The notes beneath the pieces are model-generated. The model was not told the origin of the DNA. It ran no database searches and saw only the letters and a list, made by a program, of their open reading frames with translations. A DNA stretch of 64,000 bases from Patescibacteria group bacterium (GTDB taxonomy: Bacteria > Patescibacteriota > Patescibacteriia > Veblenbacterales > UBA10138). Of this stretch, positions 5,753 to 61,081 are shown in pieces. Position 1 is the stretch's first letter; each line of letters begins with the position of its first letter. The DNA lies in the NCBI GenBank assembly GCA_041648575.1, contig JBAZOT010000003.1:14895-78894 (forward strand), written 5' to 3'. The position numbers and the translations under genes are program-made.

Positions 5753-5786
5753 ACAAAAATATAAAATTTAAAAATAAAATGCAAAA

Positions 5787-6332
5787 TTAGATCTTTTGAA
5801 TTTGTAAAAAATCCAACTCTACTGGCGTTTCCCGTCCAAACATTGAAACCAATACTTTTACTTTACCCCGACCTTCGTCTACCTCGGATACCTTACCGTC
5901 AAAATCCTTAAAAGGCCCATCACTAATTTTTACTGCCATACCAACAGTCACATCCATTTTATAAGTTGGCTCTTCAATGCCCATTCTTTTTTGCAACGCC
6001 TTCATTTCTTCTTCTGAAACTGGAGTTGGAGTGGTGCCGCTACCAATAAATCCAGTAACATTTGGGGTATTACGCACCACATACCATGAATCATCAGTCA
6101 CCATCATTTCCACTAATACGTATCCTGGAAAAATTTTCTCTTCAACCACTTTACGCTTGCCATTTTTAATGCGAATCTTTTTTTCAGTGGGAATTAAAAT
6201 ATTAAAAATCTTATCACCCATATCCATTGATTCAATACGCTGCTTTAAATTGCGGGTAACATTTTCCTCATAACCAGAATAGGTATGTAGGGCATACCAA
6301 CGTCTACCTTGTTGTATTATCTGTCGCGGCAT
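5787..6332 (-). CDS. nusG: transcription termination/antitermination factor NusG
   Basis: WYALHTYSGYEENV (NGN domain) and KOW motif GMAVKISDGPFKDFDGKV. The ATG at 6330-6332 (MPRQ...) is the likely start. The ORF track adds four residues from a TTG inside the upstream repeat element. Confidence 0.9.
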   Translation of the reverse strand: MPRQIIQQGRRWYALHTYSGYEENVTRNLKQRIESMDMGDKIFNILIPTEKKIRIKNGKRKVVEEKIFPGYVLVEMMVTDDSWYVVRNTPNVTGFIGSGTTPTPVSEEEMKALQKRMGIEEPTYKMDVTVGMAVKISDGPFKDFDGKVSEVDEGRGKVKVLVSMFGRETPVELDFLQIQKI

Positions 6333-6484
6333 ATCCAGTAACAATAACTTGACCTGCTAAAAATTAAGCGAGTCAAAAGTTTATTTAATAGTTAGATCGG
6401 TCTTGTTTAAAAAAGATAACATAGATTAATAGTATAGATAATTTCTATCAGCACGAGCTTAAGTCAAGTTTTGTTACTGGACAT
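6333..6484. repeat. Copy 1 of a ~140-bp TIR-bounded intergenic cassette (copy 2 at 51633-51777)
   Basis: Left end CCAGTAACAATAACTTGACCTGCTAAAAATTAAGCGAGTC, right end GAGCTTAAGTCAAGTTTTGTTACTGGACAT. The termini are inverted repeats of each other (CCAGTAACAAAACTTGAC). About 41 nt on the left and 30 nt on the right are near-identical to copy 2, and the middle is about 70% similar. Confidence 0.8.
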
Positions 6485-6487
6485 AAT

Positions 6488-6676
6488 TTATTTATATAAT
6501 AATTGCTGCAACCCTATATTAAAAATATAATCTAAGGCGCCTAAAAAAATAGCTACCCCCAAAGAAATACCAATCACCAACAAAGTATGTTGGGTAGTTT
6601 CTTTTTTGGTAGGCCAAACAACCCTTTTAAGTTCTTCAATTGATTGTTTAAAATAATTGGTTAATTTATTAGGCAT
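6488..6676 (-). CDS. secE: preprotein translocase subunit SecE
   Basis: 62 aa, single C-terminal TM helix LLVIGISLGVAIFLGALDYIF. Conserved position immediately upstream of nusG. Confidence 0.85.
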   Translation of the reverse strand: MPNKLTNYFKQSIEELKRVVWPTKKETTQHTLLVIGISLGVAIFLGALDYIFNIGLQQLLYK

Positions 6677-10373: not shown

Positions 10374-12881
10374 TTAATGATCTCTAACTTCTGCGTTAAA
10401 TTTTTTAATTAATATTTGCTTAATCTTTTCTATTACCTTGTCCACTTCTTCTGATGTTAATGTCCTATCCGAGGCACGTAAAGTCACGGTAAAGGCGATA
10501 CTGTGTTTAGGGGCGTAAACATCAAATAGTTCAATTGATTCTAATAAATCCATATTCTCAATTTCTTTTTGAATTTGAGACCAAGTTACCCTTTCTGGCA
10601 AAATAATTGATAGATCTCTCGCAGCTTCGGGGTACTCTGGTGGCGGTTCCGATGGGCTGGTCGGCCCTATTTCCAACATATCAAGTGACAACTCAATTAC
10701 TGCAGTAAATTCAGGCAAATCTAACTCCCGTCGTAATTTTTCTTGCAATATCCCGATGTGCCCAACTGTCTCGTTATTAATAATAATATCGGCTGCCATA
10801 TTTTCATTAAACCAGTCATGCTTAATTTTTTGCACTTCCACTAACTTAAAATCATTTTCCAGTTCATGGCCGATCTGTACGAGAACCCCAACCATATCAC
10901 GGTAACACCGGAGGAGGTCATCTCGTTCGTCACGTTTATTTCTACCAAGAACTATACCCAAATGAAACGGCTGTTTGGGTAAATTGCCACCCCCAGGTCT
11001 TCGTAAATACTCCTTACCGGATTCCGCCACAAAGACCCGGCCAATTTCAAACATTTTAACATTTTTATGTTTCTGACTATTTAAACCGGCTTGCCCTAAA
11101 AAGTTGGGTAATAAAGTTGGTCGTAAATAAGGCTTGCCCTGATCTGTTGGGTTTTCTAATTCAATACTTAAATCGCTTGTTATATGTTTACCTCTAATAG
11201 TCAGCCCAAAGTTTTGTAAATCTTTTTCACCCACAAATGAATGACTTAAAGTCTCTGTAAACCCAGCACCAATCAAGCACTCACGAATTTTTTGCATTAA
11301 CAATTGCTTTTCATCGGCCAATGGTTTAGTAATGGTAAAACTCGGCAGACTCGGCGTAATTTTTCCATAACCATAAATCCGTGCTACTTCCTCCAACAAA
11401 TCTTCACGAATTGTTACGTCTCTAGTGGCCCGCCATGAAGGCACGGTTACTTGCCATTTGACCACGCTGTCATCGCGATCCGCCCTGATCGGAGTGGCGA
11501 TCTTATGAGATTGCTTCGATCCGCTCGCAATGACTTTTATTTTAAAACCCAAATTCTCCAATATATTTTTAATCTGGCTATATTTTATTTTCGTACCCAA
11601 ACGCTCATTAATCCAATCGGGATTTACATTAATTTCAACCGGTTTAAATTTTTTAGGATATTCATCAACTAGGTCGCTGGCAACTTTTACGCCTGTAATT
11701 ATTTGTTGCATTATAGCCACAAAGCGCTTAATGCCAATTTCTGCTAGTTCTGGATCCAAAGCTTTTTCAAAACGAACAGATGCTTCGCTGCGTAAACCAA
11801 GTTTGCTGGCTGTTTGTCTTATACTAATCGGATTAAAAGTCGCAGATTCTACCACCAAGTTAGTTGTGCTAGATGAAACCTCACTAAACTCGCCACCCAT
11901 TACGCCAGCCACAGCAATCGCACTTTTATCATCAGCAATAACCAACATCTCACTGGATAATTTTCTGGATTCTCCATCTAGTGTTTTTATTACCTCTCCG
12001 GAGTTTGCTGTTCTGACAACAATTTTTGGAGAAGATAATTTTTGTAGATCAAAAGTGTGCAGTGGTTGGCCAGTTTCCAACATTACATAATTAGCAGCGT
12101 CCACCACATTATTTATTGATCTCATACCCAGGGCTTCTAATCTATTCTTTAACCATGTTGGTGATGAGGTAATCTTAATTCCAGCCAGCACCACCCCCAT
12201 ATACCTGTGGCATAAATCAGAGTTTTTAATTTCAACTTTAAACCCATTAGAGCCTTTTGGCAAATCAGCCAATTCCGGTAGTTTTAATTTTGTATTCCAC
12301 AAAGCTGCTAACTCCCTAGCCACACCCAAATGACTCCACAAATCAGGTCGATGAGTAATTGATTTATTATCAACTTCAATAACCAAATCATCTTTACCTA
12401 AAGCTTTGGCTAATAGTGTTCCAGGTTTAGCATCCAAATACGATAAATCCATAATGCCGTGCTCTGGTTCGTTATCATCAACCAAACCTAATTCTGCGGC
12501 CGAACAAGCCATACCATTACTTTTAACTCCACGAATAGTAGCAGCTTCCAATGACGCAAATTCACCCTCTCCATGCCATTTGACCAACGCGCCAGGTTGA
12601 GCCAGCGCGACTTTCATTCCTTCTTTTAAATTAATTCCTCCGCATACTATTTCCACTGTTTTGCCACCAATATCAACTGTAGCTAACTTTAATTTATCAG
12701 CATTAAGATGTGTTGATACTTTTATAACTAAGCCTACCGTGACTTTATTCAACTTTTCTGCCTCGCTGGTAACTGATTCTACCTCCATAACTGACATAGT
12801 CAAAAGCTCGCCCAACTCGCGCGCACTGATCCGCTTGGGTTTAACTATTAACTCTGCTAATGTTTTGTAAGAAAGATGCAT
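10374..12881 (-). CDS. pheT: phenylalanine--tRNA ligase beta subunit
   Basis: 835 aa. N-terminal tRNA-binding domain (...HLNADKLKLATVDIGGKTVEIVCGGINL...), B3/4 and B5 domains. Confidence 0.95.
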   Translation of the reverse strand: MHLSYKTLAELIVKPKRISARELGELLTMSVMEVESVTSEAEKLNKVTVGLVIKVSTHLNADKLKLATVDIGGKTVEIVCGGINLKEGMKVALAQPGALVKWHGEGEFASLEAATIRGVKSNGMACSAAELGLVDDNEPEHGIMDLSYLDAKPGTLLAKALGKDDLVIEVDNKSITHRPDLWSHLGVARELAALWNTKLKLPELADLPKGSNGFKVEIKNSDLCHRYMGVVLAGIKITSSPTWLKNRLEALGMRSINNVVDAANYVMLETGQPLHTFDLQKLSSPKIVVRTANSGEVIKTLDGESRKLSSEMLVIADDKSAIAVAGVMGGEFSEVSSSTTNLVVESATFNPISIRQTASKLGLRSEASVRFEKALDPELAEIGIKRFVAIMQQIITGVKVASDLVDEYPKKFKPVEINVNPDWINERLGTKIKYSQIKNILENLGFKIKVIASGSKQSHKIATPIRADRDDSVVKWQVTVPSWRATRDVTIREDLLEEVARIYGYGKITPSLPSFTITKPLADEKQLLMQKIRECLIGAGFTETLSHSFVGEKDLQNFGLTIRGKHITSDLSIELENPTDQGKPYLRPTLLPNFLGQAGLNSQKHKNVKMFEIGRVFVAESGKEYLRRPGGGNLPKQPFHLGIVLGRNKRDERDDLLRCYRDMVGVLVQIGHELENDFKLVEVQKIKHDWFNENMAADIIINNETVGHIGILQEKLRRELDLPEFTAVIELSLDMLEIGPTSPSEPPPEYPEAARDLSIILPERVTWSQIQKEIENMDLLESIELFDVYAPKHSIAFTVTLRASDRTLTSEEVDKVIEKIKQILIKKFNAEVRDH

Positions 12882-12978
12882 GTAATTTCAAAATGTAAAA
12901 ATCAAAATGCAAAATGACAGATTAAACTTTAAAATTAATAAATAATTTTGATTTTTGATTTTTTAATTTTAAATTAAC

Positions 12979-13003
12979 TAAAATTGCTCTAAAAATCTTA
13001 AAT
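12979..13003. repeat. 25-bp direct repeat copy B (TAAAATTGCTCTAAAAATCTTAAAT), 24/25 identical to the pheS 3' end plus stop at 13900-13924
   Basis: Direct sequence comparison. Lies about 100 nt upstream of the pheT start, just downstream of the 13035-13880 gene. Confidence 0.7.
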
Positions 13004-13034
13004 TTACTGACAGAAGAAGAAATGATAAATAACC

Positions 13035-13880
13035 CTACTTAATATTTCTTGATGAAGCCTCGTGTAATCCAGTAGATAAATCGCCCTTTGGTTGACTTAG
13101 ACAAAACAATAACACATAATCTTGATCATTATTCTTTGAGGTGTAAGTATAATCTTGATCGGGACAACCTCCTTCCATCCATGGCTGAGGATTACTGGGT
13201 ATCTGCCCCATATACACGGTTTCAAGTTTAGCATCGCAGTGACTCATAAAACCTTTTGAACTTAAACACAACCCACCCACAGCCAACGGTGCGGTGACTT
13301 TTGGATAATAATTTAACTCATCAAAATAAAACTCTAGCACCGTTTGTATTTGCCTTACGTCTGACAATCGTTTACCATCTCGTGATTTTTCTAATTTAGA
13401 ACTACCTGCGGGTAATACGCCAAGTAGAATCACTGCGATAATTATGTAACTCACCACATTAAACAAAACAGTCAATAGTGCGGTTTGACGACGAGTAAAT
13501 CCAAGCTTAAACAACCTACTTTTTACTACCCAGTACTCAATAAAAACAGTCGCGGGGAATAAAAATATGATGAAATAGGCAACATCAGTACCATAACCGT
13601 TTATTGGTAAAATTCCACCAATTATAGAAGTAACAAGATTGGCGATTAAGGATACTAAAATACTTTGCTTCCACGAAATTTCTTTTTTAAAAATCCAGCG
13701 CGAGAAATAGTAAATAGCTAGTGTCTCTGAAATAAAAATTATTGGGTAAATATACCAAACCGGAAGTAATGTATAGATAATTGGGGCTGCTAAATCCGCG
13801 TGGGCTATACCAGGCATCAACAACATGATTCCAATAACAAACAAGAGTCTATTAATTTTTATAATTATAAGTCGATTCAT
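13035..13880 (-). CDS. polytopic membrane protein with C-terminal type IV pilin / pseudopilin-like globular domain
   Basis: About 160 aa N-terminal with 4-5 hydrophobic helices. Then KRLSDVRQIQTVLEFYFDELNYYP, the hallmark of pilin/pseudopilin alpha-beta domains, and a Cys-containing tail. Confidence 0.6.
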   Translation of the reverse strand: MNRLIIIKINRLLFVIGIMLLMPGIAHADLAAPIIYTLLPVWYIYPIIFISETLAIYYFSRWIFKKEISWKQSILVSLIANLVTSIIGGILPINGYGTDVAYFIIFLFPATVFIEYWVVKSRLFKLGFTRRQTALLTVLFNVVSYIIIAVILLGVLPAGSSKLEKSRDGKRLSDVRQIQTVLEFYFDELNYYPKVTAPLAVGGLCLSSKGFMSHCDAKLETVYMGQIPSNPQPWMEGGCPDQDYTYTSKNNDQDYVLLFCLSQPKGDLSTGLHEASSRNIK

Positions 13881-13898
13881 AATAGAGTAAATAAAAAA

Positions 13899-14921
13899 TT
13901 AAAATTGTTCTAAAAATCTTAAATCACCCGATAAAAATAGACGGATGTCATCAATCTGATATTTCATCATAACCAAACGAGACAGGCCTAAGCCAAAGGC
14001 AAAACCAGAAAATTTTTCAGGATTTACACCTCCAGCTTTTAATACGTTGGGATGCACTAAACCACAAGGCATCAATTCCACCCAACCAGATTGCTTACAA
14101 ACACTGCAACCTTTACCACCGCAAATAAAGCATTTTACATCCAGCTCAAATCCCGGCTCCACAAATGGAAAATAACCAGGTCGCAATCGAATCTCCACCT
14201 CTTTTTTAAATATTCCTTTTAACAACTCATTCATTACCCCGATCAAATGAGCTACGGTTATACCCTCTGCCACTACCAAACCTTCTAAGTGCCAAAAAGT
14301 ATTATCATGAGAAGCGTCAGTTGCTTCATAACGAAAGACTTTTCCCGGCACTACTGCGCGCAAAGGTGCGCCATATTTTTCCAGAGCCCTTACTTGCACG
14401 GACGAAGTATGAGTACGAAGCAACATCCTGTTGCCACTAATTGGCTTTTTTTCTTTAATATAAAAAGTGTCTTGAATATCTCGTGCTGGATGCCAGGAGG
14501 GAATATTTAAAGCCTCAAAATTATAATACTCGCTTTCCAATTCTGGTCCATCGAGTACCATAAAACCCATAGAGCGAAACAAATCTTCTAGTTCTTTTTG
14601 TACAATGGTTATGGGATGATAATGCCCGCGCGCGGGTTTAATACCAGGCAAAGTAACATCAAAAAATTCATCTAACTCTTTATTATTAGAAATATTTTTT
14701 TGCGTAAAAGCATTTTCTAAATCAACCTTCAACTCATTGGCTAACTTACCTAAACGTGGCCTCTGTTCTATACTAGATGCTTTAACCAATTGCATGACAG
14801 CGGCTAACTCTCCCTTACGGCCTAAATACTTAATCTGCCAATTTCGTAATTCGGCAGTCGAACGTAAAGATGACAATTCAGTCAGCGCTTGTTTTTTTAC
14901 ATTATTAATCTTATCAATCAT
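13899..14921 (-). CDS. pheS: phenylalanine--tRNA ligase alpha subunit
   Basis: 340 aa. Class II motifs ...FRYEATDASHDNTFWHLEGL..., GFAFGLGLSRLVMMKYQIDDIRLF. Confidence 0.95.
   Translation of the reverse strand: MIDKINNVKKQALTELSSLRSTAELRNWQIKYLGRKGELAAVMQLVKASSIEQRPRLGKLANELKVDLENAFTQKNISNNKELDEFFDVTLPGIKPARGHYHPITIVQKELEDLFRSMGFMVLDGPELESEYYNFEALNIPSWHPARDIQDTFYIKEKKPISGNRMLLRTHTSSVQVRALEKYGAPLRAVVPGKVFRYEATDASHDNTFWHLEGLVVAEGITVAHLIGVMNELLKGIFKKEVEIRLRPGYFPFVEPGFELDVKCFICGGKGCSVCKQSGWVELMPCGLVHPNVLKAGGVNPEKFSGFAFGLGLSRLVMMKYQIDDIRLFLSGDLRFLEQF
13900..13924. repeat. 25-bp direct repeat copy A (pheS codons ...LRFLEQF plus stop)
   Basis: TAAAATTGTTCTAAAAATCTTAAAT. See copy B. Confidence 0.7.
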
Positions 14922-14924
14922 AAA

Positions 14925-15320
14925 TCAATCTTGTTCAGGCGGAACCTGTCGCCGCATTGATAAAAAGAAAAATTCAATTATTGTTAAAGCCAAAATTAAA
15001 ATAACTAAATTCCACCATGTTAATAATTTTTGATCTTGAAGTAATAAGGCTAACACAATTACGATTCCTAAAGATATTCCTTGACGAAAAGATATAGAAA
15101 CTTGCCTAAACACCACTTCATCTTTGCGCAACCAATAGCGAATTGCAAACCCTATCAATGTGGTAGTGCCAATAATGGCAATAAACAAGGCCAGGTAAAA
15201 AAACACAAACCCCATTGTTCCAGCTGATTCTGGTGCTAAATAATTAATTACCAATAACCAAGCTGCCCAAGCACCACAGGTACTTAACAGCATTAAAAGA
15301 ATATACTGGCGTAATGTCAT
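14925..15320 (-). CDS. small integral membrane protein (4 predicted TM helices), unknown function
   Basis: Hydrophobic 131-aa ORF 3 nt upstream of pheS (operonic). Confidence 0.5.
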   Translation of the reverse strand: MTLRQYILLMLLSTCGAWAAWLLVINYLAPESAGTMGFVFFYLALFIAIIGTTTLIGFAIRYWLRKDEVVFRQVSISFRQGISLGIVIVLALLLQDQKLLTWWNLVILILALTIIEFFFLSMRRQVPPEQD

Positions 15321-25369: not shown

Positions 25370-25404
25370 ATTAAAAATTTAAAATTTAAAAATCAAAATG
25401 AAAA

Positions 25405-32711: not shown

Positions 32712-32749
32712 TAGTCATTTACCCTTTCGCGCGAAAGGGTAAATGACTA
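32712..32749. repeat. Perfect 38-bp palindrome (b): TAGTCATTTACCCTTTCGC|GCGAAAGGGTAAATGACTA
   Basis: Perfect dyad. Inner core ACCCTTTCGCGCGAAAGGGT. Half-copy at 33082-33100 in front of the ArsR gene. Confidence 0.85.
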
Positions 32750-32777
32750 AAGAAATAATTTATGCATAAACAGTTAA

Positions 32778-33056
32778 TTAGCTAGTCTGACGGACTTGCT
32801 TAAGAAGCTGCTGCAACAAACTACTTAACCCCTCATCTAAACTATATAGACCTACGTATCCAAATTGCCTGCGTTCTAAAAACCCCACTTGCCGCAATAG
32901 CACTAAGTGTTTAGAGGTGGACTTAAATGATAGATGAATCGCCGTCGCAACGTCACCTACTGTCCGCTCTTTACCATCGGACAACAACCTTAGTATCTCC
33001 AGCCGCTTTCTCGCACCCAGCGCCCGGTAAACCTTTTCTAACTCTCGTAGACGCAT
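32778..33056 (-). CDS. ArsR/SmtB-family winged-helix transcriptional regulator
   Basis: ...YRALGARKRLEILRLLSDGKERTVGDVATAIHLSFKSTSKHLVLLRQVGFLE...: ArsR HTH signature. Confidence 0.8.
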   Translation of the reverse strand: MRLRELEKVYRALGARKRLEILRLLSDGKERTVGDVATAIHLSFKSTSKHLVLLRQVGFLERRQFGYVGLYSLDEGLSSLLQQLLKQVRQTS

Positions 33057-33081
33057 GTTGGTAGTATATCATATTTACTGA

Positions 33082-33100
33082 TTCGCGCGAAAGGGTAAAT
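33082..33100. promoter_or_regulatory. Half-site TTCGCGCGAAAGGGTAAAT of palindrome (b) overlapping the ArsR promoter region (likely autoregulatory operator)
   Basis: 19/19 identical to the right arm of 32712-32749. Lies 25-45 nt upstream of the arsR-like ATG next to a TATACT -10-like hexamer. Confidence 0.55.
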
Positions 33101-33120
33101 AATCATATAAACCAACACAT

Positions 33121-49742: not shown

Positions 49743-51632
49743 TCTAACAACCACTCCTTTGCCTTGCGCGCCTAAATCATTATCCAGTTCTGTGGTAACT
49801 AATTTATCTGTAGCAATTAAATCTGCACCGCTATAAGCATCCCGAGCTGTGGCAGTGGTGGTTTTTACCAACACTAAAATTTTATCCGCATCTTGCTCTG
49901 CCGGTGTAATAGCTACTTCAAAAGACGCTTCTGGTTTATCAAATTTAAACCCTACGCCCGCAGGCAGACGATTTAATTCCCAACGCACTTCGCGAGTATT
50001 GGGATTATATGTTAATGGCTGGCCATGCGATACTGTCGTTTGTCCGGTCCAGGTTACATCTTGGGGTAAAGTAGTAGTAACTTCAACGTTGCTAGCCTCA
50101 TTAATAGTATTGGCTAATCTCCAAAAAATATTATAAGTGGTAGTGTTGCCTACTCGCGGCGGCAACTGTCCCGAGCCAATTTTTATCAACTGATCTGTGT
50201 AATACCTACCTTCTGTTTGAACTAATAATTGTGTATTAATCTTGGTAATTATAATATTTGATTCAGTAGTAACCGGCTGTAATTTACCACCAATCAATTG
50301 CTCGGCACTCGCCTTAACGCTGGTATTAAAACTATAAGGCGACATATTGTTAGGAGCAACACTTACAACTTTCAAGCGAAAATTAATACTGCCTTTGGTA
50401 CCAGGAGCAACTCTAGCTAAACTGGGCAACTCATTTTTTGTCCAAACCACTGCGTTTTCTGTCTCTTTAACATTAGTTGGCGTATCTGTTTGCCAAGAGG
50501 TCCAATCTAATAACTCGGAATTTAATTTGGTCTCTAACACTAAATTAGTTAAAGCAATTTCCCCTTCATTAGCATAACGCAATTCAAAATCAATTTGTTC
50601 CCCCCAATCAGCATAGCTTTTTAAAACTACCTGATTCGCAGTTAATGACAATGTTAAATGAGACTCAATTAACGTTACAGATATTTTCTTTTCTTCTTGA
50701 ATAGTAAAAGTATTATCGTCATTAATCACACCAATGGCTACAGAAAAATCCTGAATACCAGCACTAGCTGAAGTGGTAAACCTGCCGGTAAATTCCAGCT
50801 CGCCAACACTTTTGGCAGATAGGTCATCCAATTTCCATAAATTTATTTCGCCAATTACTGATTCTAATTTTGGAAGATCCAATTCGAAGCCGCTGGGGCT
50901 AATGAATTTTAATGCTAAATTCGGCAACGCCGCAGTAGAAGTATTATTATACTTAATTTTTAATGCCAAATCTTGATCAAAAGGTAATTGTGCAGGAGCT
51001 TCTAAATCTATGGTTACTACCGAAGCAATTAATTCTGTGGAAAAAACTGTCGTCTTGGCAAACTGTGCTTTAAAATTTTCCGGCTCATATGTAAAAACCG
51101 CGGCCATTTCCTTAATCTCGCCAACCTCACCAACCATTTGCCCGGTTATTACCAACTCTCCACTACCTTTGGCGTCAACTTGACCTAAGAGAAATCTAGT
51201 CTTGGCTTCATCATCAGCTGGTTTACTGGTTTCAGTTACGACAAAACCAGTCGGATAGCGAAAATTAACTTCCAAAAAATTTAAACCAACTCCCTGATCA
51301 TTATTCCAAGACAAAGTATAATTAATCATTTGCCCCGATGGCGCACTGACTGGACCAGATAATTTCACCTTAACCGCTTCTTCGCCAAATTTTGTATTCT
51401 GACCACTAAAAAAAACAAACCAAATGCCACCGACAATAATTACCACTAATAAAGTGGTCGTTAACCATAACCAACCACGCTGACGTGAAGCTTTTTTTCT
51501 TAGCACGCGAAAATCTTCAGGTGGATCTTGGCGATACATGCGCGCCAATTCACGCTCGGCAACTTCTGCAGTTAAAGGTGTTTTTTTTGATTTTGATAAA
51601 GTATCAAGAGGTGGCCTAGAAATATTAGACAT
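49740..51632 (-). CDS. large membrane-anchored extracytoplasmic protein (about 630 aa; cytoplasmic N-terminus, one TM, beta-rich ectodomain), unknown function
   Basis: ...RQRGWLWLTTTLLVVIIVGGIWFVFF TM. Long Thr/Ser/Val-rich ectodomain. The likely start is ATG at 51630-51632 (MSNISRPP...). Confidence 0.6.
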   Translation of the reverse strand: MSNISRPPLDTLSKSKKTPLTAEVAERELARMYRQDPPEDFRVLRKKASRQRGWLWLTTTLLVVIIVGGIWFVFFSGQNTKFGEEAVKVKLSGPVSAPSGQMINYTLSWNNDQGVGLNFLEVNFRYPTGFVVTETSKPADDEAKTRFLLGQVDAKGSGELVITGQMVGEVGEIKEMAAVFTYEPENFKAQFAKTTVFSTELIASVVTIDLEAPAQLPFDQDLALKIKYNNTSTAALPNLALKFISPSGFELDLPKLESVIGEINLWKLDDLSAKSVGELEFTGRFTTSASAGIQDFSVAIGVINDDNTFTIQEEKKISVTLIESHLTLSLTANQVVLKSYADWGEQIDFELRYANEGEIALTNLVLETKLNSELLDWTSWQTDTPTNVKETENAVVWTKNELPSLARVAPGTKGSINFRLKVVSVAPNNMSPYSFNTSVKASAEQLIGGKLQPVTTESNIIITKINTQLLVQTEGRYYTDQLIKIGSGQLPPRVGNTTTYNIFWRLANTINEASNVEVTTTLPQDVTWTGQTTVSHGQPLTYNPNTREVRWELNRLPAGVGFKFDKPEASFEVAITPAEQDADKILVLVKTTTATARDAYSGADLIATDKLVTTELDNDLGAQGKGVVVR

Positions 51633-51777
51633 ACCCAGTAACAAAAACTTGACCTGCTAAAAATTAAGCGAGTCGAGATAATTAATAATAAAAGTTGGTT
51701 GGTTTATAAAAGCTGACATAAATTGATAATATAGATGATTTTTACCAGAGCTTAAGTCAAGTTTTGTTACTAGGCAT
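51633..51777. repeat. Copy 2 of the ~140-bp TIR-bounded intergenic cassette
   Basis: ACCCAGTAACAAAAACTTGACCTGCTAAAAATTAAGCGAGTC ... GAGCTTAAGTCAAGTTTTGTTACTAGGCAT. See copy 1 at 6333-6484. Confidence 0.8.
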
Positions 51778-51779
51778 AT

Positions 51780-52529
51780 TTATAGAATACTACGTAAAAG
51801 TTTTAATGTATAGAGTTGTCGTCCTGCCTGTCCTTGGACATAATCAACCAAAAATCCTAAAAGTTCAGCTGGTAATTGACGATTATACGGTGGTTCCGCT
51901 CGTGTCGCTAGGGTGTGTAAATAACTTAAAGCGTCATCAGTTAATAAAAACAAACCACTGCTATCGATGATACAATTTTTATGATAAAAACCATGTTCTC
52001 TAAAACTAAACACCACGGGCGCTGCTAATTCACCTTGGCATTTTGGACACCTAGTAACTTGAATTGCTAGACCAGTAATTTTTAATATTTTATAAATAAA
52101 TCTGCCCAGATATGTTCTGGCTCGCTCACGCCAAGCCGGCTCATCTTTGGGAATATCTTTTAATTGGCTTAAATAATACCTTAGCGATTTTAATAATTCC
52201 GGTTCAGGCGCGCCTAAAGAAGTTAGCACATCAGTTATTTCCAAAAACGAAGTGCCTAAAATGGCGGTATTTAAATGATAAGGTGTTTTTAAAAAAATTC
52301 TTTTAAGTTCCGCGCCTGCTAATTTATCATATTTTTTCCCCGGTGCCACCTGTACCTGAACTTCACCAAAAATCACCAAATGTGGAGCTAATTTAGATAA
52401 AATTTTTCGCGAACTAGTAGCTACCGCCTCAACCTTACCCCGTCGCTCTGTAAAAATAGTATAAAGCCGATCATTTTGCCTATGACTTCTAGCGCGTAAA
52501 ACAATACCGGTAGTGGTATAAGTAGACAT
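51780..52529 (-). CDS. recO: DNA repair protein RecO
   Basis: N-terminal OB fold (...TGIVLRARSHRQNDRLYTIFTERRGKVEAVA...). C-terminal zinc motif CPKCQGE...HKNC. Confidence 0.75.
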   Translation of the reverse strand: MSTYTTTGIVLRARSHRQNDRLYTIFTERRGKVEAVATSSRKILSKLAPHLVIFGEVQVQVAPGKKYDKLAGAELKRIFLKTPYHLNTAILGTSFLEITDVLTSLGAPEPELLKSLRYYLSQLKDIPKDEPAWRERARTYLGRFIYKILKITGLAIQVTRCPKCQGELAAPVVFSFREHGFYHKNCIIDSSGLFLLTDDALSYLHTLATRAEPPYNRQLPAELLGFLVDYVQGQAGRQLYTLKLLRSIL

Positions 52530-60593: not shown

Positions 60594-60708
60594 CATGAAG
60601 TATATGCTAGCAAATTAATACGCCATGAAGTTGTATAAAGAAGTAAATACTTCTTGGCTCGCCATGAAGTTATGCGAATAAAATGAGCATATACTTCATG
60701 GTGGAGAT
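60594..60708. promoter_or_regulatory. Cluster of CATGAAGT iterons (3 direct, 1 inverted) between the tmRNA 3' end and the GIY-YIG/infC operon
   Basis: GCATGAAGTA at 60595, CGCCATGAAGTT at 60633 and 60661, ACTTCATGGTGG at 60693-60704, overlapping the tmRNA CCA end. Confidence 0.4.
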
Positions 60709-61081
60709 GGCGGGAATTACACCCGCGTCTAAGACAATTAACTTTACCCTTCTACAAACTTAGTCTGATTAATTTTGACAGAAGTCAAATCAGACCAAAG
60801 CCCCTGTCAATCTGTCCTAAGTAATGTCGGCCTAAGCACTAGAACAATACTTAAACCCTGCTCGATAAATGACGCTCTATAAGACTATCGAGATCGTCTA
60901 ATAGAACGGCCTCTGCTTAAATTAAGCAAAAGCTGGTGCTAGTGTCAAAGTGCTAAAAGCAGCTTTGGCGCGAGCTACAAATGATTTGGCATTTGTGAAG
61001 TGTGATGCTTTTATTACGCAGACACATCAACTGCGGTCTGCCAGACAAAGATCACTGCCTTATCGATTGTTAAACATCCCC
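60700..61081 (-). ncRNA. ssrA: tmRNA (SsrA), about 382 nt
   Basis: Minus strand 5'-GGGGAUGUUUAAC... and 3'-...GACGCGGGUGUAAUUCCCGCCAUCUCCACCA. 7-bp acceptor stem with G3.U wobble (AlaRS identity). T-arm GCGGG/UGUAAUU/CCCGC. Encoded CCA. Plausible tag ORF GCC AAA UCA ... GCU UUU GCU UAA (AKSFVARAKAAFSTLTLAPAFA*). Adjacent to smpB. Confidence 0.85.

Follow-up and report, generated by a model that had tools for sequence, protein, structure and literature searches.

How did a bacterium come to carry a gene for a membrane protein inside an essential synthetase operon, with a copy of the end of the upstream gene on either side of it? The question is raised by a stretch of 64,000 nucleotides (nt) from contig JBAZOT010000003.1, part of the metagenome-assembled genome of an ultra-small Patescibacteria group bacterium (the window), in which an open reading frame (ORF) of 281 amino acids (aa), here called ORF281, lies between pheS and pheT, the genes of the alpha and beta subunits of phenylalanyl-tRNA synthetase (PheRS). 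The 64-kb window was studied by ORF listing, Pfam searches and direct reading of the sequence. The gene order on the minus strand is pheS, ORF281, pheT and then gyrB, and both synthetase genes are intact: pheS (13899-14921) encodes 340 aa with Pfam matches PF01409 (9.6e-92) and PF02912, and pheT (10374-12881) encodes 835 aa with five Pfam domains. Our comparison with related loci gives good support for an insertion of ORF281, the mechanism of which we infer.

The direct repeat and the empty sites of relatives

The last 25 nt of pheS including the stop codon (TAAAATTGTTCTAAAAATCTTAAAT, 13900-13924) recur with one mismatch (24/25) at 12979-13003. As the original prediction had described, these two copies lie 921 base pairs (bp) apart and bracket the 846-bp gene ORF281 (13035-13880, minus strand), and both the coordinates and the repeat were confirmed. 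Only the two sites were found when up to three mismatches were allowed on both strands of the 64 kb, so the 25-mer is not a common motif in the window; there was no third copy, and none of 100 dinucleotide shuffles contained two matches. The block of high identity is 28 nt long (26/28; 13897-13924 versus 12976-13003, spacing 921 nt), and the copies differ at GAA/GAG, which is synonymous, and at TAA/TAG, both of which are stops. The upstream copy (13897-13924, minus strand) is functional and consists of the last eight pheS codons (DLRFLEQF), TAA and 2 further nt. The downstream copy (12976-13003, minus strand) is a non-coding relic that reads NLRFLEQF* in the pheS frame, with GAG and TAG as in the related locus L168. 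Extension of the repeat to 45 nt (78%) was not significant (in-register p 0.03-0.08, local alignment p 0.59), and an argument from synonymous differences between the relic (LLLSVN) and pheS (LFLSGD) was dropped because the similarity past 28 nt is not significant.

The repeat together with ORF281 was recorded in three contigs from independent assemblies, and the name of the contig, k141_75984, points to a k of 141, far above the 28 nt of the repeat; an artefact of assembly is therefore unlikely. The alternative offered in the original prediction, that a terminator or attenuator was duplicated, was not borne out. The 25-mer is coding sequence without a hairpin, no structured RNA in the spacer or the repeat matched Rfam at E<=1, and no terminator-like site was present on the gene strand in either. 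The spacer folded no better than its shuffles (z -0.61). On these grounds, the idea that the spacer or the repeat holds a structured RNA, an attenuator or a terminator was rejected.

To compare the locus in relatives, PheS was scanned in species-representative genomes and metagenomes, which gave 160 loci, and a protein search with contig look-ups added closer relatives whose PheS is 76-80% identical. The metagenome scan contained no PheS relative above 68%, and the protein database reached 80%. The closest relatives (PheS 72-80% identical) lack ORF281, and neither ORF281 nor a relative of it was found at pheS-pheT or anywhere else in the fetched loci (160+ related loci). The stop codon of pheS and the start codon of pheT overlap (TAATG) in L002 and L165/L166. 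In L168, pheS ends with GAG CAG TTT TAG, followed by a 71-nt AT-rich spacer and pheT. L001, whose DciA (74%) and whose 131-aa membrane protein encoded upstream of pheS (90%) mark it as the sister lineage, has pheS-TAG followed by an AT-rich stretch, and its contig ends 76 nt past the stop.

The relic in the window is followed by an AT-rich pheS-pheT spacer (12882-12975, minus strand), the counterpart of the spacers in L168 and L001. This spacer aligns with the L168 spacer and pheT start. The L001 pheS end and the next 25 nt match window positions 13003-12954 at 90% over 50 nt, and the first 25 nt of the L001 spacer match the sequence after the relic at 21/25; matches of at least 21/25 to this spacer 25-mer occur at only 3 of 128,000 window positions, two of them here. 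The position of the downstream 25-mer is that of the native pheS end in L168 and L001. The empty sites, together with an L168/L001-like spacer after the downstream copy, suggest that the downstream copy is the relic of the native pheS terminus. The derived state would then be ORF281 plus a fresh pheS terminus, and the interpretation of ORF281 as a lineage-specific insertion, apparently made after the split from the closest sampled relatives, is well supported by this comparison. It had been predicted that an insertion or recombination delivered the gene and left a junction duplication; the empty sites and the pheS ends of L168 and L001 support this, since no relative has ORF281 and in the closest ones the two genes either abut or are separated by an AT-rich spacer.

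The spacer also holds an inverted repeat, imperfect and with arms of 44 nt at 12882-12925 and 12935-12978, and a leader-like motif that is found upstream of other genes as well. The AT-rich motif AAAATTTAAAAATCAAAATG is present at 25373-25404, 5755-5789 and 12882-12913, directly upstream of minus-strand start codons, and is probably a leader or promoter motif typical of the lineage. Separately, the pheT of GCA_964349095.1 lacks about 270 codons that are present in a 99.6%-identical contig (L165:7268-7367 versus L166:7268-8075), which is either a real deletion or a misassembly.

The pheS-pheT junction across Patescibacteria

The premise that pheS and pheT are normally adjacent held for about half of the Patescibacteria loci but not for the rest. 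Among 147 loci with both genes, the two genes abut in 58, are separated by 36-150 nt in 16 and lie more than 150 nt apart in 73. The gaps hold at least 17 unrelated ORF families, including thioredoxin-like lipoproteins, PQ-loop proteins, a Y1-transposase-like protein and a bAvd-like protein. Significant direct repeats near both ends of the gap were found in 3 of the 64 distinct insert-bearing loci, namely the window's locus, L011 and L004. In L011, a 141-aa ORF is flanked by a duplication that runs from the pheS stop codon to pheT codon 6 (42 + 34 identical nt). The gap of L004 contains a 27-nt direct repeat, with a 65-aa ORF downstream of one copy and pheT downstream of the other. In L167, the functional pheT is preceded by an insert of ~180 nt, ahead of which lie 32 nt that are a relic of the start of pheT (MYLSYKTLEE). 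Besides the window's locus, at least three others (L011, L167 and L004) have direct repeats, which in L011 and L167 are duplicated junction sequence bracketing an insert. The junction duplications vary in length (27, 28, 32 and >80 nt) as well as in position, and both synthetase genes were left complete in each case. Such variable lengths argue against a recombinase with a fixed core or a transposase.

The L011 insert (L011:7018-7667; Komeilibacteria RIFCSPLOWO2_01_FULL_45_10, identical in L106) encodes a protein of unassigned family, and the stop codon of its 141-aa ORF is the TGA of the second junction copy.

As far as the pheS stop codon, L162 and L163 agree at 99.5%; beyond it their sequences differ. 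Three contigs (L162:6847, L163:1576 and L164) encode an identical PheS protein (99.5-100% at the DNA level) and part exactly at the pheS stop, past which there is either a signal-peptide ORF, in two variants, or pheT directly. Divergence at the stop between contigs with identical PheS points to a strain-level polymorphism of the junction in one species. The pheS end itself is conserved at the DNA level, with a median identity of 20/25 over 148 pheS genes. As far as can be judged from sequence comparison, the pheS-pheT junction is a recombination hot spot that has been repeatedly invaded by unrelated genes. Our literature search for pheS-pheT insertions or pilin islands of Patescibacteria returned nothing relevant.

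How ORF281 may have entered the operon

The inserted DNA contains little besides ORF281. An 18-nt gap (13881-13898, minus strand) separates the pheS stop from the ORF281 start, and the right-hand edge of the inserted DNA consists of the 31 nt (13004-13034, minus strand) from the ORF281 stop to the relic, a sequence that occurs once in the window. ORF281 is the only ORF between the repeats, and neither the ORF list nor Pfam revealed a recombinase, integrase or transposase gene in or beside the insert. No terminal inverted repeats pair its two ends. No ORF281 homologue was found in phages, plasmids or viral contigs, and the pheS-end 27-mer was absent from viral contigs.

One interpretation accounts for these junctions. 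The ancestral order would have been pheS, AT-rich spacer, pheT, and ORF281 would have been inserted at the extreme 3' end of pheS. Had the incoming DNA been joined at two points staggered by 28 nt, the 893-bp insert would be left with a copy of the final 25 nt of pheS, the stop codon and 2 nt beyond on each of its sides. The upstream copy would then complete pheS, and the downstream copy would stay behind as a non-coding relic attached to the native spacer and pheT. Host recombination or repair may have produced the event from imported or ectopic DNA, with illegitimate recombination, short-homology recombination and template switching as candidate routes. Selection would keep only products in which both essential synthetase genes are whole, which would explain why gene ends are duplicated. 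We consider it probable that an insertion of ORF281 with staggered junctions made by host recombination is the explanation, and the involvement of an element-encoded integrase or transposase seems unlikely. The event belongs to a known, ordinary kind at a junction that is often disrupted in Patescibacteria. The original prediction had spoken of a target-site or junction duplication; the junction duplication stands, but nothing element-encoded was found to make it a classical target-site duplication.

The pheS gene itself has a composite history. PheS is 73% identical to that of L001 and 80% identical to those of the L168/L169/L162 cluster, and in the identity matrices this is incongruent with the flanks. 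Within the gene, the resemblance is to the L168/L169/L162 cluster from nt ~60 to ~720 and to L001/L002 over the last ~130 nt. Informative sites are cluster-like by 19:5 over nt 1-900 and L001/L002-like by 6:1 at the 3' end. This mosaic indicates that the lineage has recombined with diverged DNA at the pheS locus. The mosaic breakpoints lie at approximately 14860-14921 and 13968-14199; upstream of pheS, dciA and the gene of the 131-aa membrane protein (14925-15320, family unassigned) group with L001/L002, as do the last ~130 nt of pheS. The genes around the insert are pheS, pheT, gyrB, the 131-aa membrane-protein gene and dciA.

Homology-facilitated illegitimate recombination during natural transformation, as described in Acinetobacter and Streptococcus pneumoniae, resembles the present case in that the host gains foreign DNA beside a conserved anchor, with arbitrary junctions and leftover fragments of the recipient gene. 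It also needs no element-encoded enzymes, and the window's pheS is itself mosaic. It differs in that pheS next to the insert looks native, so that no donor-derived anchor can be demonstrated. A single event of this kind that brought in both a foreign pheS and ORF281 was rejected for the same reason, namely the native-type pheS 3' end beside the insert.

Several points weigh against the staggered-junction interpretation. The pheS segment adjoining the insert looks native (6:1 sites), and mosaicism and insertion therefore cannot be attributed to one event. The insert is a single instance, from which the molecular routes cannot be told apart. The L001 contig stops 76 nt after pheS, so that the full junction is unseen there, and the likeness of the L168 spacer is partly that of a shared class of AT-rich motifs, other short spacers of the window scoring nearly as high. 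In addition, integration by an integrase classically leaves a direct repeat of this kind, which covers the 3' terminus of a conserved gene.

This last point leads to the rival that survives best, though we judge it unlikely: ORF281 would be the remnant or cargo of a site-specific integrative element, in which an attP mimicking the pheS 3' end recombined with an attB in pheS and the 28-mers are attL and attR, the integrase and the remainder having later been deleted or the cassette having been mobilised in trans. The direct repeats do extend over the 3' terminus of a conserved housekeeping gene and restore that gene, and the DNA-level conservation of the pheS end (median 20/25, 148 pheS genes) would make it a good att site. 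As in islands and prophages that reside in the 3' ends of tRNA or protein genes, the repeat is the conserved terminus of a gene, the upstream copy keeps that gene intact, and accessory cargo lies between the copies. However, only the repeats covering the 3' end of the target agree with an integrase island; a recombinase gene and an element or attP elsewhere were not found. The pheS insert has no integrase or other element genes and carries 893 bp of cargo, one ORF with flanks of 18 and 31 nt. Among 161 loci, no other has a second copy of the pheS end, viral, plasmid and related loci yielded no attP-like copy, the 27-mer is absent from viral contigs and ORF281 from phages and plasmids. The duplications of L011, L167 and L004 at the same junction in neighbouring lineages moreover differ in position and length.

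Slightly less probable still is that the downstream copy was retained for a function, the pheS end and the start of the spacer forming a pheT promoter or leader (TTTAGA, 16 nt, TAAAAT) that preserves expression. A promoter-like site runs from 12993 to 12966 on the minus strand with its -35 element inside the relic, a comparable TTTAGA-N16-WAAAAT arrangement was seen by eye at the native pheS ends of L001 and L168, and the relic (26/28) is better conserved than the sequence upstream of it. Promoter-like sites are, however, at chance level (10 found versus 10.6 expected), and in many relatives pheS and pheT overlap without any such spacer. Besides, this reading explains why the copy was kept but not how it arose.

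We regard it as very improbable that ORF281 is ancestral and was lost in the relatives, for example through recombination of one repeat with the other. Precise deletions can arise from direct repeats, and L169 and L162/L164 (PheS 79-80% identical) also have signal-peptide ORFs directly after pheS. Yet these ORFs show no detectable homology to ORF281 (best pairwise E 0.018 over 23 aa), no full-length ORF281 homologue was found anywhere searched, and the several different states in relatives would require many independent losses.

Least credible of all, a transposon-type target-site duplication has in its favour that a direct repeat flanking an insert has that formal look, or else an assembly artefact would be at work, but there is no transposase, no inverted repeat at the insert ends and no short fixed duplication (28 nt is, to our knowledge, far above those of insertion sequences or transposons), and the artefact is opposed by the three assemblies and the short repeat discussed above.

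Staggered integration with a longer duplication is known from other systems: casposon target-site duplications are 14-15 bp, and Cas1-Cas2 duplicates a whole CRISPR repeat. The present case is similar in that a target duplication of tens of bases flanks the inserted DNA; in contrast to those systems, the insert showed no Cas1 or casposase, and the length varies among analogous events.

The ORF281 protein and the meaning of the insertion

The inserted gene had been predicted to be membrane/pilin-like, and this description fits what was found. ORF281 is a fusion of a rare 5-helix membrane domain (residues 1-~155) and a type IV pilin/GspG-like head (~160-281) that carries four Cys. It is an orphan at full length, with no full-length homologue among 5.8 billion proteins and no Pfam match. 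An exhaustive HMMER search with residues ~140-281 identified 2033 relatives, many of which are proteins of 150-160 aa with prepilin N_methyl and T2SS-G domains, and the family profile matched geopilin, GspG and PilA in the PDB at 1e-15 to 1e-8. The AlphaFold2 model of residues 160-281 has a predicted local distance difference test score of 91-98, and its best Foldseek neighbours are PulG (1t92, prob 0.94) and GspG (3g20), with weak E-values of 0.08-0.2. This model shows the fold of a pilin head, in which a long alpha1-C helix lies against an antiparallel beta-sheet.

Like type IV pilins and GspG (PF07963 + PF08334), ORF281 thus has an alpha1-C helix and a beta-sheet head in its C-terminal half and keeps the near-invariant R167, D168, R171, D174, L182, E183, Y192 and P193, among others. 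Unlike them, it lacks the class III signal peptide (GFxxxE) and has the 5-helix membrane domain in its place. Neither Pfam nor NCBIfam gave an N_methyl match for the prepilin leader, the GFxxxE or G|F(T/S)LxE motif of PF07963 / TIGR02532. In the alignment, the helix equivalent to the prepilin helix follows four other membrane helices, reads KLGFTRRQTALL and has no Glu5; the canonical homologues P0008 and P0022 possess the prepilin motif. ORF281 is predicted from its sequence not to be processed like a true prepilin, and the 5-helix domain in place of a class III signal suggests a protein that is probably fixed in the membrane, not a subunit of a pilus. The four head cysteines suggest an extracytoplasmic location. 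The head is probably a disulphide-containing pilin fold displayed outside the cell and held by the polytopic N-terminal domain. ORF281 is most likely a membrane-anchored, pilin-derived surface protein that would serve as a lineage-specific surface or adhesion accessory. No terminator-like site was found between the pheS stop and the ORF281 start, and ORF281 is therefore presumably co-transcribed with pheS.

As to its source, the 5-helix domain recurs only in P0034 and P0272, which are standalone proteins; a donor arrangement with this domain family beside pheS was rejected, because P0034 and P0272 sit in unrelated gene contexts. The window contains no ORF281 paralogue that could have served as a source, and composition gave no sign of foreign origin, the GC content and third-position GC content (GC3) of ORF281 being those of its neighbours.

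Other features of the window were recorded as well. In the alignment with its relatives, pheT has an in-frame insertion of ~21 codons (VIASGSKQSHKIATPIRADRDDSVV) at ~11465-11535 that is missing from their PheT and is encoded by a GC-rich palindromic element (GTCATTGCGAGCGGATC...GATCGCGATGAC). Similar GC-rich palindromes are present in the pheS-pheT spacers of L001, L004, L005 and L167. An element of ~155 nt is duplicated at 6330-6488 and 51630-51781 (82% overall, 91-96% at the ends), one copy upstream of nusG and the other upstream of a DUF11 surface-protein gene beside recO. Inverted repeats of 19 nt (CCAGTAACAAAACTTGAC / GTCAAGTTATTGTTACTGG), which take in the ATG of the downstream gene, mark its ends; the element had no Rfam match. 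The palindrome ATTTACCCTTTCGCGCGAAAGGGTAAAT occurs at 32717-32755 and 33073-33111, flanking a gene for a 92-aa helix-turn-helix protein of the ArsR family (32778-33056), and the pair may be operators or terminators. Rfam placed a transfer-messenger RNA (tmRNA) at 60699-61081 on the minus strand (97.5 bits); ARAGORN gave no tRNA or tmRNA in the whole window.

A more far-reaching idea, in which we place little confidence, is that conserved pheS and pheT ends act as integrase-free landing pads for single-gene cassettes in Patescibacteria. Cassettes flanked by a duplicated junction could be excised as circles through recombination between the repeats and, after DNA uptake, could re-integrate in other lineages by short-homology (~25-100 nt) recombination at pheS/pheT termini. 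If true, this would amount to cassette exchange driven by host recombination inside an essential operon.

In Patescibacteria, pilin-like surface proteins are thought to act in host attachment and in the uptake of DNA. The architecture of ORF281, a pilin head on a polytopic anchor, widens the known variety of pilin-derived proteins. The locus documents how a streamlined uncultivated bacterium gained a surface-protein gene inside an essential operon with both flanking genes undamaged. The wider pattern, with recurrent invasion, strain-level polymorphism at the pheS stop and relic duplications of variable length in several lineages, is of more use, and it makes the pheS-pheT junction a concrete locus for studying integrase-independent gene gain and recombination.

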